Positions 9,824 through 59,810 of a stretch of DNA of 64,000 nucleotides are shown piece after piece; positions within the stretch are counted from its first letter, which is position 1, and the number at the start of each line of letters is the position of its first letter. The translations under genes were made by a program, and so were the position numbers. Where the stretch lies: positions 928,001 through 992,000 of the forward strand of contig CAWGED010000005.1 of assembly GCA_963821525.1 (NCBI GenBank), given 5' to 3'. The notes beneath the pieces were generated by a model, which searched no databases, was not told where the DNA came from, and saw only the letters and a program-made list of their open reading frames with translations. This DNA comes from an uncultured Gemmatimonadales bacterium (GTDB lineage: Bacteria > Gemmatimonadota > Gemmatimonadetes > Gemmatimonadales > GWC2-71-9).

Positions 9824-9942
9824 GATTGCCGATTGCCGATTGTCGATTAAAAACTGCGGATAAGATTGCTGATTGCCGATTGTCGATTGACAGCGACGGT
9901 CGGTGGATCGCCACCCCAATCGGCAATCGGCAATCGTCAATT
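9824..9942. repeat. Inverted heptamer tandem-repeat element (GATTGCC)n ... (CAATCGG)n
   Basis: Two left blocks of gattgccgattgccgattgtcgatt and a right block caatcggcaatcggcaatcgtcaat. Confidence 0.82.
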
Positions 9943-15553: not shown

Positions 15554-17809
15554 GTGAGGCCGCGGCCAGTCATACTGCTGACGTTTGCCTACGGGGCCGG
15601 TCTCGCGACCGGCCTCGCGCGTTTTGTGGATCCTGGACGCTGATTCCGCTCCTCATCGTCGGGGTCATGGGGCGGAAGACACTGAGCGGGTTCGTGCTGT
15701 CTCGCCGCAATGCTCGGAGGTGCCGCGGGCGCGCTCGCCAAGTGGGAGGATGGGTTCGGCTGCGCGGCACGACTGCCGAGTGTCGGTGTGAGCCTGACGG
15801 TAGTTCTGGAAGAGCCGGTGTCCGAGAGCGGTGGCGTGGGCTTGGCCTCGCCGGTTGGGGCTGGTTGCCAGGGCGTTATCGCGGTGCGTTGGCCGGTCGG
15901 CTCCGCCGCCACCGCCGGATCCCGGGTTCGAGTCACCGGACGGTGGATCAAGGATCCCGAATCGGGGATACGGCCAGGAGGTTTGTTCCTGGTCCAGAGG
16001 AGCAGCACCATCCCCGGTCGCCCCTCATTACCCCAGCGGCTCAAGTCGTGGATCAGGCAGACCTCGTCCACGCTCTACGGCACTCGGGCTGGAATCGTGG
16101 ATGCACTGGTGCTCAATGCCCGGGGCGGCATGAGCCAGGAACTGCGCGACCAGTACACTCAGTCGGGACTGGTCCACATCCTGTCGATTTCCGGTTTTCA
16201 TGTCGGATTGATCGCCGCATGGGTGTTGCTGCTGCTGCGCGGGGTCGGAGTCGCCCGAATCCCGGCGATGCTGGGCGCCGCGGGCGTCAGTGTTCTCTAC
16301 GTCCTGTTCCTCGGCTGGCCACCTCCCGCTGCCCGGGCGGCGGCACTCGCTACCTTGCTTGCGCTTTGCCGCGCGAGACAACGGCAGCCACAGACCCAGG
16401 CTCTCCTCGCGGCGACTTGCCTCGGTGTGATGGTGATTGATCCCTGGTCCGTGCTGGATCTCAGCACCTGGCTCTCGGCCGGAGCCTTGTGGGGTGCGGT
16501 GACCTTCGGACGCTGGAGCGATCGTGCGCTGGGGAGCGGCTGGTGGTGGCGAATGCTGAGTTCCTCGCTTGGAGCGACTCTGGCCACGGCGCCGATTACC
16601 GCGGGCGCCTTCGGGACGGTTTCCCTGGCAGGGATCATCCTCAACTTCCTTGCGATTCCGCTCGCCGCACTCGCGGTACCGGGAATACTCGCCAGCCTCA
16701 TCATGGCTCCGCTGTCGGGTCACGTCGCGGCGGCGCTCGCGACCGGTTCGGGTCTCGCCCTGGAGGGACTGGATTTCCTGGCGAGGTGGGGGTCCCACTG
16801 GCCCGGTGCCTGTGTCTGGCTCCCGGCGGAATGGAAATCCAGCTTACCATGGCTGGCGGTTCTGGCGGTCGCACTCTGGGGAATGGCGGGCGGAACAACT
16901 GCGACTGAAGCGTTGCGGCGCTGGGCGCTGACCCTGGCGTGCGCCATCTGGGCTGGAAACCTCGCGGCACTCTACGACGCGCGCAGTGACAACGCCTCGG
17001 ATTTGACGTTACATTTTCTCGACGTAGGGCAGGGCGATGCGGCCGTCTTGCGCACGCCCGGCGGCCACTGGGTGGTGGTGGATGCGGGTCCCCGATCCGA
17101 TAAGTGGGATGCGGGCCGACGGGTCGTGGCCCCTTATCTTGCCCGACATCGTGCCGCGCGAATCGACGTGCTAGTGATTTCCCACGCCCACGCAGATCAT
17201 CTCGGTGGCGTGTCTGCACTGCTCGATCGCTACGACCCGGGTCTCATTCTCGAGCCGGGCGAGCCGGTGCGGGACCCGTTGTATCTCGAGTTCCTCGACC
17301 GGGTCGCGGCGCACGGCCTCGTCTGGCGTCCCGGGCGTCCGGGCGATCACTTCGAGGTGGACGGTGTGCGCTTCTCGGTGCTCCACCCCGATACCGGCTG
17401 GACGCACTGGCGGGAGGACCTGAACGAAGATTCCCTCGTCCTCCTGGTGGAGTATGGAGCGTTCCAGGCTCTTTTCGCGGGAGACGCAGGGGTCGTGGCG
17501 GAATCGCTCCTGATCCGTCGCGCAGGAGCGGTCGATCTCCTAAAGGTCGGGCATCACGGGTCGCGCACCGCGAGCAGCAATGCCTGGCTCGACCGGCTTC
17601 AGGCCAAGGCCGCGGTCCTGAGCGTCGGGAAAATCAACCGGTACGGCCACCCGAATCCGGAAACGCTCGAGCGGCTGAGCCGGCACGGCATGGCCATCTG
17701 GCGCACCGATCGTGACGGGACCGTGGACGTGGAAACCGATGGCCGCAGCATGATCGTGCGCGGCAGGGGTCGCACTGAGCGGTATGATGTGACTGACACA
17801 ACGCACTGA
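15554..17809 (+). CDS. comEC: DNA uptake competence protein ComEC/Rec2 (N-terminal frameshifts)
   Basis: [14 protein letters not shown] competence domain. [19 protein letters not shown] and KVGHHGS beta-lactamase-fold domain. Confidence 0.92.
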
Positions 17810-17837: not shown

Positions 17838-18850
17838 GTGATCAGCAATAGCCGAGTTACCACGATCGAGCGGTTCATCATCGACCAGGAAAGCAAGTAC
17901 CCCGAGGCGACGGGCGAGCTGTCGAACCTGCTCTACGACATCGCGCTGGCGGCCAAGATCATCGCCGGGGCAATCCGGCGGGCCGGGCTGGTGAACATCC
18001 TGGGCAGTGCTGGGACCACCAACATCCAGGACGAGGAACAGCAGAAGCTCGACGTCTTTGCCAATGAGACGATGACCAACTCGCTCAATCACACCGGGCG
18101 AGTCTGCGTGATGGCGTCGGAAGAGGACGAACATATCATCCCGGTCCCGGACCAGTATCCGGCTGGGAAATACGCGGTCTTGTACGATCCCCTCGATGGC
18201 TCGTCGAATATCGATGTCAACGGTGCCGTCGGCACCATCTTCAGCATCTATCGCCGGGTGACCACCGAAGGGCGGGGATCCGAAGCGGATGTGCTCCAAC
18301 CGGGCTGCAAGCAGATCTCGGCGGGCTATGTGATCTACGGATCGAGCACCATGCTGGTGTACACCACCGGTCAGGGCGTTGCGGGGTTTACTCTCGATCC
18401 TTCCATCGGCGAGTTCCTGCTCTCCCACCCTCGCATCGTCATTCCGCGCGTGGGGAAGTACTACAGCGTCAACGAGAGCAACTTCGCCCGGTGGAACAAA
18501 GGGATTCAGACTGCAGTCCGCGGCTTTCACGGCGATCGCCCCAGGACATCAAGGGCAAGAACAGCCGGTACATCGGGTCACTGGTGGCGGACTTTCACCG
18601 GAACCTGATCGCCGGCGGAGTGTTCCTGTATCCGGCGGACACCAAGAACACTCGAGGGAAGCTGCGGCTGCTCTACGAGTGCTCGCCCATGGCGTTCATC
18701 GCCGAGCAGGCCGAAGGCTCGGCCACCGATGGGGTCAACCGGATCCTCGATATCGTCCCTACCGCTCTGCATCAACGCACGCCGCTGGTGATCGGGTCAC
18801 GGGAGGATGTGGGATACGTGGCGGATACGTTGAGGAAGGTGGGGGAGTGA
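17838..18850 (+). CDS. fbp: Class 1 fructose-1,6-bisphosphatase (frameshift near 18540)
   Basis: [46 protein letters not shown]. Confidence 0.96.
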
Positions 18851-18952: not shown

Positions 18953-20487
18953 ATGCCCTCACCTCGCAAGACCATCTACAATGCCGCCGACGCCCGCCGG
19001 CGACTCCACCGCGCCCGGCACCTTCCCGTTCACCCGCGGGATCTATCCCGGCATGTACACCGAGCGGCTCTGGACCATGCGCCAGTACGCCGGGTTCGGA
19101 ACCGCCGAGGAGACCAACGCTCGGTTTCGTCATCTGCTGGCGGCGGGGCAGAGCGGATTATCTACCGCGTTCGATCTGCCGACCCAGATGGGGTACGACT
19201 CCGATCATCCGATGGCGGAGGGAGAGGTGGGGCGGGTTGGTGTCGCCATCGACACGGTGGAGGACCTGGCGACGCTGTTCCGGGAGATTCCGCTGGACAA
19301 GGTCTCCACATCGATGACCATCAATGCCACCGCGGCGATCCTGCTCGCGATGTACGTAGTGGTGGGGGAAGAGCAGGGAGTAAGCCGAGAGAAGTTGCAG
19401 GGCACGGTGCAGAACGATGTGCTCAAGGAGTACATCGCGCGCGGTACCTACATCTTCCCTGCGGAACCGTCGCTCCGGCTCGCGGTGGATCTCTTCCGCT
19501 TCGTGGCGGACGAGAAGCTCAACTTCAATCCGATCTCGATCAGCGGCTATCACATGCGGGAGGCCGGGGCGACACCGGTGCAGGAGGTGGCGTTCACGCT
19601 GGCCAATGCCATCGAGTATGTGAAGCGCGCGGTCGCGGCGGGGATTCCAGTCAATCGCTTCGGGCCTCGGCTCTCGTTTTTCTTCGCGGCCCACAATGAC
19701 TTGTTCGAAGAGGCGGCCAAGTTCCGGGCCGCCCGGCGTCTCTGGGCCAGGCTGGCGCGGGAGCGTTTCGGGGCCGACGATCAGACCTGCAGGCTCCGGT
19801 TTCACACCCAGACCGGCGGAGTGACGCTCCAGGCCCAGCAGCCGTTGAACAACGTCGTGCGGGTCACGGTGCAGGCCTTGGCCGCGGCGATGGGGGGAAC
19901 TCAGTCGCTCCACACCAATGGCTATGACGAGGCGCTGGCGCTGCCGACCGCGGAGTCGGCGACGCTGGCGCTTCGGACCCAGCAGATCATCGGCTTCGAG
20001 AGTGGGATGAACCAGGTGGTAGATCCGCTCGGTGGGAGCTACTACGTCGAGGCGCTGACCAGCCGGATCGAGCAGGAAGCCGAGACGTTAATCAAGGAAG
20101 TAGACGCGCTGGGCGGTGCCGCCGCGGCGATTCAACGCGGCTTCTTCCAGGAGGCGATCGCGAAGAGCGCCTGGGAGCTGCAGCAGAAACAGGAATCGGG
20201 GGAGGTGACGGTGGTAGGGGTTAATCGCTTCACCGACGATTCGCCCATCCCTTCGATCGAACGGCCTGACTACTCGGCCCTGGCCGAACGCCAGAAGGCG
20301 CAACTCCGTGAGGTAAAGGCGAAGCGTGCCGCTCCCGCGGTCACCAAGGCTCTCGACGCCGTCGCCCAAGCCGCAGCGCGGCTCGGCGCCCCTGATGCCT
20401 CCCATCATCGAAGCCGTCCGCGCCCGCGCCACCCTGGGCGAGATCAGCGACACTTTGCGCGGCGTTTGGGGAGTCTACAAGGGGTAA
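18953..20487 (+). CDS. Methylmalonyl-CoA mutase, N-terminal substrate-binding subunit (B12-dependent; terminal frameshifts)
   Basis: [54 protein letters not shown]. No B12-binding DxHxxG domain in this ORF. Confidence 0.93.
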
Positions 20488-20528
20488 TGGATTGCTTGGC
20501 CATTTGTCGCTCTCTTGATCCCTAACAT

Positions 20529-21426
20529 CCAATTTGAACAGATGAAACGCAGAGGCGCAGAGGGCGCCGAGGCCTGCAGTAGTCGGCATGGGCTGAGTTC
20601 GAGCGAAAACCAATTCTAGTGTTCTCAGCGCCTCCGCGTTTGCAGTTCCATAGCGTCCCCAATTACCAAACATGAACAGCATGAAACGCAGAGGCGCAGA
20701 GAACGCGGAGGATGTGCACAATGCGATTTCAGAACAGGTAATTGGTGCCGCAATTCAGGTTCATCGTTTCCTAGGGCCAGGCTTGTTGGAATCGGCATAC
20801 GCCGCCTGCCTGGCGAGGGAATTTCACCTGCAAGGGATTCAGTTTGACCAAGAACGACCAATCCTGGTGGGTTATAAGGGAATCAAAATCGATAATGGAT
20901 ACCGGGTTGACTTCGTTGTCGAGCAACTCGTTATCCTCGAAATCAAGGCGGCCGACCGACTGCACCCGATTCACACAGCACAACTTCTTAGATATCTCCG
21001 CCTCACCGACAAGAAGCTGGGTTTGCTGATCAATTTCAACGTGCCTGTCCTTCGTGACGGCGTTCGCCGGGTGGTAAACAATTTGTAGTCTTGGGGCCTG
21101 AGTTGAGCGAAAACTACTTTAGTGTTCTCTGCGTCCTCCGCGTCTCTGCGTTTGCAGTTCTACAGCTCCCCGCATAACCAAACTTGAACAGCACGAAACG
21201 CAGCGTTTGCAGTTCTACAGCTCCCGAATGACCAAACGTGAACAGCATGAAACGCGGAGGCGCAGAGAGCGCCGAGGACGGCGGCAATCGGCATGGGCTG
21301 AGTTTGAGCGAAAACCATTTTAGTGTTCTCTGCGTCCTCCGCGCCTCTGCGTTTGCAGTTCTACAGCTCCCCGTATTACCAAACGTGAACAGCATGAAAC
21401 GCGGATGCGCAGAGAGCGCCGAGGAC
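20529..21426. repeat. Tandem array of ~140-nt hairpin cassettes, one unit carrying the GxxExxY gene
   Basis: Units start at 20529, 20666, 21178, 21232 and 21379 with CCAAAC(R)TGAACAGCATGAAACGC. Each complete unit has AAACGC(A/G)GAGGCGCAGAG ... CTCCGCG(C/T)CTCTGCGTTT inverted arms. Confidence 0.9.
20672..21088 (+). CDS. GxxExxY family protein (PD-(D/E)XK nuclease fold)
   Basis: GPGLLESAY, YRVDFVVE..VILEIKA, AQLLRYL, GLLINF. Visibly more AT-rich than its neighbours. Confidence 0.93.
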   Translation: MNSMKRRGAENAEDVHNAISEQVIGAAIQVHRFLGPGLLESAYAACLAREFHLQGIQFDQERPILVGYKGIKIDNGYRVDFVVEQLVILEIKAADRLHPIHTAQLLRYLRLTDKKLGLLINFNVPVLRDGVRRVVNNL

Positions 21427-21501
21427 TTCCTGACCTCACTTGAATCCCCTAATCAAGTCGGCTAAGTTCTTGTCCTGTTTCTCCTTAGGATAAGCCACCG
21501 A

Positions 21502-21905
21502 ATGCCGACGTACGAGTACCAATGCCCTGAAGGGCATGAGTTCGAGCTGTTCCAGAAGATGTCCGAGAAGCCGCGTGCCAAGTGCCCCGTATGCGGGAAA
21601 ATGGCCACCCGGAAGATCTCGGGCGGGGCCGGTCTCGTCTTCAAGGGCTCGGGCTTCTACATCACCGACTACGGGAAGGACGGAAAGGGACCGCGGAAGG
21701 CGGACAAGGCGGACGCGGCGGACAAGCCTGCCCCGAGCGGAAGCGAGGGGGGGCGGCGGACAAGTCGGACAGGGCGGACAAGCATGCCCCGAGCGGAAGC
21801 GAGGGGGCGGGTAAAGCGGACCAGCCTGCTCCCAAGGCCGACTCGAAGACCGACTCGACCCCGGCCAAATCCCATAAGCCCCAAAAGAAGAAAGCCGGCG
21901 AGTGA
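21502..21905 (+). CDS. FmdB family zinc-ribbon protein with low-complexity tail (frameshifted)
   Basis: MPTYEYQC..GHEFE..Q......CPVCG...FKGSGFYITDY. Confidence 0.9.
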
Positions 21906-49198: not shown

Positions 49199-49385
49199 CG
49201 GACGGGCGGACGAAAAGCGCGGACAAAAAGAGCGGACCGGCGGACGGACGGGCGAGGACGGACACACAGCGCGGCACGGCAGCGGAGGGTGGGCTTAGTC
49301 GTCGGCCAGCCCGGTCTCCGCCGCGGCCCTGGTCCGCTCAGTTAGTCCGCCGGTCCGCTCAGTTGGTCCGCTCCGTTCGCCCGCC
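49198..49385. repeat. Inverted (GCGGAC)-core repeat element
   Basis: Multiple gcggac on the left and multiple gtccgc on the right, upstream of clpB. Confidence 0.7.
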
Positions 49386-49454
49386 CTGTCAATTCGGCAG
49401 GGAAATCGGGTACACCGCTTGCGATCGCGGGGCCCGATAGAGAAAATCCCCCAA

Positions 49455-57450: not shown

Positions 57451-57659
57451 GCCGCAGATGAACGCAGATAAACGCAGAGTTCGCGATCATATTAGCCAAT
57501 GCCTCTTATTCAGAGGCAATTTATCGATCGGCAACAGGCTTCATCTCGGAGAGTTTGGTAGAGGCCGCGGATCAACGCGGATGAAGAAGCTCGGTTGATT
57601 CAATAGGTGGGGCCAGTACCCCTGCAGGTTATCTGCGTTTATCTGCGTTTATCTGCGGC
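57451..57659. mobile_element. MITE-like element with 28-bp terminal inverted repeats built of (AAACGCAGAT)n
   Basis: gccgcagatgaacgcagataaacgcaga versus tctgcgtttatctgcgtttatctgcggc (1 mismatch). AT-rich non-coding core. Shares AAACGCAGA with the GxxExxY cassette arms. Confidence 0.6.
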
Positions 57660-59684: not shown

Positions 59685-59810
59685 GGTCGAAAGTCGATAG
59701 TCGATGGTCAGTGGTCCTTGGTCTTAGACCTCGCGTCCCTATCCTCGGTTTGGGCTTTGCGCGGACCCAACACCCATGACCTATGACCATCGACCATTGA
59801 CCATCGACCA
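59685..59810. repeat. Inverted heptamer tandem-repeat element (GTCGATR)n ... (GACCATY)n
   Basis: gtcgaaagtcgatagtcgatggtc and gacctatgaccatcgaccattgaccatcgacc. Same family as 18857-18946. Confidence 0.8.

Follow-up and report, generated by a model that had tools for sequence, protein, structure and literature searches.

In the window (the whole stretch of 64,000 nucleotides analysed here), a methylmalonyl-CoA mutase gene and fmdB are separated by an array of five units, one of which carries a GxxExxY gene between inverted arms. We slightly favour the reading that the array arose through local tandem expansion of this arm-flanked cassette, which would be a selfish, homing-like element whose nuclease cuts its own arms while host repair swaps the cassettes. 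Comparison of relatives shows the site upstream of fmdB to be a reused slot, repeatedly occupied by non-orthologous cassettes. This reuse, with the cassette replaced by unrelated cassettes in close relatives, goes beyond what the earlier note had described from the single sequence.

Array layout, assembly and encoded protein

The 1,014-bp gap between the mutase gene and fmdB accommodates the whole array (Table 1), and upon re-examination the unit boundaries given in the earlier note matched exactly. In a full unit the leader is followed by the left arm (AAACGCAGAGGCGCAGAG...), the loop, the right arm and a tail. The arms are 27 nt long, 85–89% complementary, and consist of runs of the word CGCRGAG at a spacing of 8–9 nt. 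The units do carry a leader, as had been noticed, but it is not uniform, reading CCAATTTGAACAGATG in unit 1 and ...CAGCACG in unit 3; the loss of the interior of unit 3 is borne out by the sequence. Units 1 and 4 share 88% identity over 74 nt, and the right arm of unit 1 is one 9-nt word shorter than the strain version.

Table 1. Features of the array and its neighbours (window positions), and related loci elsewhere.
Feature	Position or locus	Strand	Remarks
Methylmalonyl-CoA mutase N-terminal-domain gene	18981..20487	+	TIGR00641, PF01642; left neighbour of the slot
Unit 1	20529..20665	+	gene-less hairpin; left arm 20545-20571, shortened right arm 20623-20641
Unit 2	20666..21177	+	full cassette: leader, left arm 20684-20710, gene, 34-bp spacer, right arm 21127-21153, tail
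GxxExxY gene, 138 aa	20672..21088	+	stand-alone PD-(D/E)XK domain; second possible ATG 20681
Unit 3	21178..21231	+	collapsed, hairpin interior deleted, AAACGC-A-GCGTTT; missing from co-occurring strain
Unit 4	21232..21378	+	gene-less hairpin; arms 21250-21276 and 21328-21354
Unit 5	21379..21426	+	leader and left arm only
Promoter-like motif of fmdB, TTGAAT-N17-TAAGTT	21440..21468	+	by eye; kept in relatives; below sigma-70 scan threshold
FmdB-family zinc-ribbon gene	21502..21905	+	TIGR02605; right neighbour; assembly indels near 21751-21754
rpsA-slot loci	L069, L074, L076, L077, L081, L083, L084, L090	both orientations	rpsA and acyl-CoA carboxylase gene named by eye
Genes in own inverted repeats	G000:C4:319779, C5:406899, C19:291893, C19:1071200, C8:282890, C1:35835		PF05635 (three), DUF559, GIY-YIG, Y1_Tnp

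With a GC content of 53.5% as compared to 64.8% for the 64-kb window, the array is indeed richer in AT than its surroundings. Folded as DNA, unit 4 surpassed all of 200 shuffled sequences (z −3.6), and folded as RNA it surpassed 199 of 200 (z −2.9). The fold of unit 1 is weaker (z −2.3 as DNA, −1.4 as RNA), and unit 3 gave no significant fold. A search of Rfam returned six weak matches to miRNA models (20–27 bits, with cut-offs of 80–96) and none at the gathering score, and a scan of positions 20400–21600 for sigma-70 promoters and terminators found none. Similarity to same-genus relatives resumes at the promoter-like motif upstream of fmdB, which is the right border of the variable slot. A near-direct repeat flanks the array (20514–20525 and 21439–21452; CTTGATCCCTAA / CTTGAATCCCCTAA); it may stem from a duplication of the slot border that has since decayed, or be a chance resemblance. 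A unit-plus-half architecture like that of the array also occurs at a separate site of the genome of the window (G000; G001–G004 and further numbers denote relatives), where a dispersed unit is followed by a leader and a left arm and is near-identical to the left end of unit 1 (L204, G000:C4:273398–273460).

Short-read contigs from 4 of the 24 sequencing runs were compared with the array. One contig of 256 bp (run X1, record 5) spans positions 21005–21260 with one difference and no gap. An assembly artefact, which the earlier note had entertained, is ruled out, since this independent contig crosses the collapsed unit 3. In another run, a 1,661-bp contig holds the whole array except for unit 3 (21173–21228) and the 34-bp spacer after the stop codon, and these joints recur in contigs of three of the four runs. 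The array is therefore real and the number of units differs between strains. The contigs show the loss of a whole unit and of the spacer, and no sharp excision footprint could be defined in them. Housekeeping genes of the window look frameshifted at 20377, at 21751–21754 and near 18490, 22590 and 23680, and the array had been thought to interrupt such genes. This proved wrong, as the array is intergenic and the break in the mutase gene is a one-base assembly error: contigs of three of the four runs lack one base at 20377 or 20378. The frameshifts at 20377 and 21751–21754 are assembly indels, so that neither the mutase gene nor fmdB is interrupted by the array, and those near 18490, 22590 and 23680 are likely to be assembly indels too. 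The window further contains a ComEC-like competence ORF (15710–17809, named by eye), which would matter should replacement cassettes be taken up as incoming DNA.

The protein encoded in unit 2 scores 142.2 bits with TIGR04256 (cut-off 35) and 139.9 bits with PF13366 (cut-off 22), and lying far above both cut-offs it is a member of the GxxExxY family. Across 68 sequences, the eponymous residues G37, E40 and Y43 as well as D80, E90, K92 and Q104 are invariant and Y108 nearly so; E40, D80, E90-x-K92 and Q104-xxx-Y108 are all intact in the protein of the window. The AlphaFold2 model (pLDDT 91.6) shows a PD-(D/E)XK core together with a long helix at the N-terminus, and model and invariant catalytic set agree on the fold that had been named for the family. 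Cas4 SSO0001, LHK-Exo and lambda exonuclease came out as its closest structural neighbours (best E 1.2e-3, Z up to 7.2), the structure searches giving no match at E 0.001 and none at Z 8. By sequence, the PDB yielded no real relative (best E 0.24), and the ESM Atlas yielded no usable match once the PF13366 clusters had been set aside. The catalytic centre is predicted to be active and to resemble those of Cas4, RecB and lambda exonuclease, and the predicted structure contains no separate DNA-binding or joining domain. According to the earlier note, the left arm supplies the start codon and the N-terminus. Part of this holds, as the arm encodes KRRGAENAE, but both candidate ATGs (20672 and 20681) sit in the leader beside the arm. 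An arm-encoded N-terminus is rejected as a trait of the family, only 19 of 72 homologues with an arm having it.

Gene-less units can be related to the full cassette. In G003, which belongs to the same genus, two such units keep the start and the end of the GxxExxY coding sequence, and the alignment of gene-less loop and gene scored 11.6 as compared to −35 ± 6 for shuffled sequences, 0 of 500 of which reached that score. This shows the G003 units to be internal deletion derivatives of the full cassette. Units 1 and 4 keep sequence that is found after the stop codon in unit 2, which fits a similar derivation from the full cassette, the direction not being proven in this window.

Association of the gene with cognate arms

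Of 78 homologue loci drawn from GTDB and spanning many phyla, 59 have inverted arms, called at a score of at least 14, around the gene, as compared to 0 of 78 shuffled, 0 of 65 far-window and 17 of 78 mismatched controls. These loci remained of the top 80 among 544 confirmed relatives in GTDB once those with too little flank were dropped, and they had been picked by a query containing arm-encoded residues. A set picked by HMM, which avoids that bias, gave arms at 30 of 49 family loci, with 0 of 49 and 0 of 42 in the controls. For this set 57 loci had been given, 8 of which were dropped as partial, short or unmatched; the remaining 49 include two own loci and several orthologous ones. The flank survey proposed in the earlier note has thus found inverted arms in both sets, and 19 of the 78 loci are without arms at the threshold.

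The mean arm score is 18 for matched pairs vs 11 for mismatched ones, and in only 12 of 78 cases does the partner arm of a locus outscore every other arm, which places the specificity of the arms at the level of classes. Mapped onto the protein tree, arm class requires 1 change vs 10.4 in shuffles, with a clade support of only 25 and with labels shared among kin. The outer end of the arm reads (A)TTCAC-C-R-C-AGAG in 72 homologues, the arms being tandem words. The two other GxxExxY genes of the window's genome have arms of their own, different from those of unit 2, and the arms of the paralogue on C4 are of the CGCGGAT type. The third GxxExxY gene of the genome (G000:C8:120644–120956), split by a frameshift that may be an assembly indel, lies beside two hairpins with CGCGGAA arms. 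A much larger array was seen in a relative, where ten full or partial GxxExxY matches occur within 17 kb (G089:C3:1489117–1506472).

The gene is present in 47 of 121 genomes of the bacterial family. At least three arm-triple matches were found in 24 of the 47 genomes with the gene vs 0 of the 74 without it, where the maximum is two; as kin among these genomes are not independent, a Fisher test exaggerates the significance of this difference. The other 23 gene-bearing genomes have fewer than three matches for the pattern of unit 2. Abundant arms occur only in gene-bearing genomes, and not in all of them, so that the gene seems to be required for arm abundance without being enough for it. In the window's genome itself there are 39 arm-motif matches in 22 clusters, some of which are chance matches in genes; dispersed copies, for which the earlier note had suggested a search, are thus present. 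Among 54 loci, arm mismatches on the sense strand of the gene comprise 40 G-T and 46 A-C pairs. This lack of a strand bias fits a DNA-level, orientation-free element, and a sense-strand RNA stem, which should show a wobble bias, was rejected. In the open-access articles searched, we found no paper linking the GxxExxY family to repeats; where one of them names GxxExxY, the passage deals with a reverse transcriptase neighbour.

Occupied slots and other repeat families

The DNA upstream of fmdB was examined in 52 genomes, three of which were chosen because their coordinates showed a cassette. A GxxExxY cassette lies upstream of fmdB in 10 of the 52, forward in 8 and reversed in 2, and the mutase gene is the upstream neighbour at 8 of these 10 loci. 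The other loci comprise 2 with a gene-less hairpin and 15 with a plain mutase–fmdB junction of 55–166 bp, the rest having other upstream genes. The junction, whose comparison had been suggested, therefore varies across relatives between cassette, hairpin and plain sequence. In an unbiased sample, 8 of 114 genomes with fmdB carry a slot cassette, which places 8 of some 96 near-full-length genes at a single junction out of about 3,900.

Nine slot proteins, the decayed copies of G004 being left out, are 47–67% identical to one another and have different arms. An AU test on a quick tree of 52 rows, with two long rows left out, rejected a single clade for the nine proteins (p = 0.007); a quick tree of 134 rows was poorly resolved, with 11 of 129 branches starred. 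At the slot, the flanks of G000 and G003 are about 90% identical in DNA and the proteins only 55% identical. A cassette at another site is stably inherited, being 92–100% identical across five genomes of the genus, and the dN/dS of 0–0.13 for this paralogue indicates purifying selection in place. G003 and G004 have formed their own tandem arrays at the fmdB slot, while fmdB was not found in the fragmented assemblies of the same-genus G001 and G002. Among the loci compared, there was no close empty allele at the fmdB slot and no target-site duplication could be defined.

A second slot lies between rpsA and pccB. Its eight cassettes, 2 forward and 6 reversed, are 47–72% identical, have several arm types and sit downstream of the retained rpsA terminator. 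On the tree, proteins of the fmdB and rpsA slots are intermixed.

Hairpins with periodic arms are numerous in G000, with 234 at a score of 16 and 283 at a score of 14. Some of their loops hold PF05635, DUF559, GIY-YIG or Y1_Tnp genes, as found by scanning six proteins (Table 1), and several gene-plus-repeat families coexist in this genome. When seven G000 hairpin sites were followed in four same-genus genomes, all of the 20 readable orthologous junctions held an arm or a hairpin, 3 of them anchored by the left flank only. About 13 of the 20 were of a different type, as judged by eye. Over an unselected syntenic stretch of 400 kb in G000 and G004, an automatic search called 16 of 29 and 17 of 21 slots as occupied in both genomes, the background fill being 7–13% of junctions. 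Typed by eye, 34 G000/G004 slots comprised 17 of the same type, 5 with one base of the word changed on both arms, 9 with a different word and 3 that were empty in one genome. Nine switched slots among 12 that were switched or empty correspond to p ~2e-6 at 13% fill and to 0.002 at 30%, so that such a ratio is unlikely under random gain and loss, in this one genome pair typed by eye. Nested hairpins are also visible. The three clean empty slots, all of heptamer elements, revealed no clear target duplication.

Several such hairpins lie in the window. One with GATTGCC arms (9824–9941) is located at a gene junction and is cleanly absent in G004, which makes it a usable filled/empty pair for defining element ends. 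More repeat-armed hairpins occupy positions 1101–1296, 49204–49386, 57451–57659 and 59685–59809. A hairpin of a different kind is nested in the first of these, and the one at 57451–57659 is built from 10-nt CGCAGAT words, which belong to the other GxxExxY arm class.

Proposed mechanism and comparison with known systems

In the mechanism that we propose, the enzyme would recognise the CRCRRAG arms in DNA, whether extruded as a hairpin, single-stranded or read as a series of iterated sites. It would make a nick or break at the arms rather than transpose, as no strand-joining chemistry is known for it. Host recombination would then repair the lesion with a sister copy, a different hairpin or incoming DNA as the template, and the homing-like outcomes could be tandem arrays, deletion derivatives, nesting and in-place replacement. 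Replacement may proceed through insertion into an existing hairpin and subsequent deletion of one arm pair, and unit 3 probably arose by slippage across the base of the stem. Elements with heptamer arms that are tied to PF05635 genes, for which no nuclease activity is known, take part in slot switching as well, and switching may thus not need the GxxExxY enzyme.

Such a cassette could also have been domesticated by the host. The nuclease would then cut arm-bearing single-stranded DNA and tune transformation or recombination, as in the Ssn system, and the spread of repeats would be a side effect. The purifying selection on the cassette inherited in place is compatible with such a host benefit, the arm-gene-arm layout resembles NTS-ssnA-NTS, whose enzyme modulates transformation according to the pertinent part of PMC11893778, and the window contains the ComEC-like ORF. 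We nevertheless regard domestication as unlikely, because the gene is patchy within the bacterial family, is often decayed, as are the G004 slot copies, and because the slot turns over between species with 90% identical flanks. The sharing of slots by several unrelated repeat families, together with the Y1_Tnp (RAYT-like) proteins encoded in the genome, would rather suggest that fast-mutating hairpins are spread by another enzyme or by slippage, and that the nuclease ignores the arms as a passive cargo. The slots would in that case be transfer hotspots with alleles exchanged through homologous recombination in the flanking core genes, and hotspots that diversify in this manner are known according to PMC5635113. 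This scenario appears quite improbable to us, as it leaves unexplained why abundant arms are confined to gene-bearing genomes (24 of 47 vs 0 of 74), why three-quarters of the homologues lie exactly between arms and why arm class tracks protein clade.

The good fold of unit 4 as RNA and the PF05635 genes in sister hairpins of the same genome, which encode the 23S rRNA intervening-sequence protein, could point to an element acting at the RNA level. Here, the arms would form a long transcript stem that is processed or stabilises mRNA, like the 23S rRNA intervening sequence, and the protein would act on or ride in RNA. The balanced G-T and A-C mismatches, the two cassette orientations at one slot, the native terminator kept upstream of the cassette at the rpsA slot and the 15 relatives without a hairpin at the mutase–fmdB junction all speak against it and make it very improbable.

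The selfish, homing-like reading might extend to the family as a whole. GxxExxY proteins may be the cutting enzymes of widespread, undescribed selfish elements that compete for slots. They would recognise their own arms, target intergenic sites that already hold a hairpin (their own or those of PF05635, DUF559 and GIY-YIG genes) and replace it through host repair without a transposase. We hold this extension tentatively and with less than even confidence. Were it true, a very large family of unknown function would gain one, the presence of hundreds of repeat-armed hairpins in such genomes would be accounted for, and many small nucleases, each specific for a distinct short repeat, would become available. 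The apparent replacement in place, as opposed to gain and loss at random sites, bears on how intergenic repeats spread. GxxExxY enzymes, like Ssn, could moreover become structure- or sequence-specific tools.

Free-standing homing endonucleases only cut DNA and propagate by way of host repair at a fixed site between genes, and the cassette enzyme would likewise be cut-only and depend on host repair at such a site. Cleavage of an empty allele and its conversion by the host, as expected of a homing endonuclease, would be backed indirectly by the reuse of the slots. In contrast to homing endonucleases, the cassette has no separate DNA-binding domain and comes with cognate arms and gene-less derivatives; it also occupies several slots, with several types of cassette at a given slot. 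With insertion sequences and MITEs it shares terminal inverted repeats and internally deleted, non-autonomous copies, but profile and fold searches found no DDE, HUH or serine transposase in the cassette. A target-site duplication could not be defined among the slots compared. Like the MITE and heptameric repeats of Xanthomonas and Nostoc, as portrayed in part of PMC4692102, the units are intergenic near gene ends, vary in number and include inverted-end deletion derivatives; their arms, however, are made of words other than G-quadruplex ones, and a cognate gene accompanies them.

The likeness to REPIN-RAYT and REP-BIME-TnpA(REP) systems is closer to what the earlier note had in mind. There, too, a gene is tied to inverted repeats, and dispersed gene-less doublets occur in intergenic regions and in tandem clusters. 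According to the passages on REPIN clusters in PMC3116915, these consist of tandem units including flanking DNA, with insertions into or beside existing elements, as seen here. The largest cluster described in those parts of PMC3116915 and PMC8266576, four REPINs and one extra REP, parallels the four units and one arm of the array. Of the note's selfish, RAYT/REP-like cassette, the real array, the armed homologues and the variable locus with dispersed copies stand, whereas the HUH/Y1 fold and the GTAG tag are missing. The cassette enzyme is a predicted PD-(D/E)XK protein instead of an HUH/Y1 tyrosine transposase; it matches PF13366 and TIGR04256 only and not Y1_Tnp, which was detected for another gene of the genome. 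The arms are 7-nt words at a spacing of 8–9 nt instead of the self-folding, GTAG-tagged palindromes portrayed in part of PMC8266576, and the gene is carried within the loop of a single element.

The PF13366 family is common among prokaryotes, and in the table of PMC3424549 it is listed together with TIGR04256 as being of unknown function and subject to multiple transfers; repeats are not mentioned in that passage. A cognate DNA element tied to PF13366 makes the function directly testable, because the substrate is written beside the gene. There is a further parallel to Ssn with its NTS/SRM repeats, for which the pertinent part of PMC11893778 describes a small single-domain nuclease gene flanked by a cognate, genome-dispersed repeat, the gene tracking repeat abundance. 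The two differ in fold, GIY-YIG there vs PD-(D/E)XK here, GIY-YIG having been detected only for a different gene of the genome. In addition, the SRM is itself a short hairpin whereas the hairpin here needs both arms, and cleavage is proven for Ssn according to that source but would follow only from prediction for the GxxExxY cassette. Gene and arms are likely to constitute a selfish element of the nuclease-plus-cognate-repeat design that was not found in the open-access literature. PD-(D/E)XK would be the third enzyme fold in this design, after HUH (RAYT) and GIY-YIG (Ssn).
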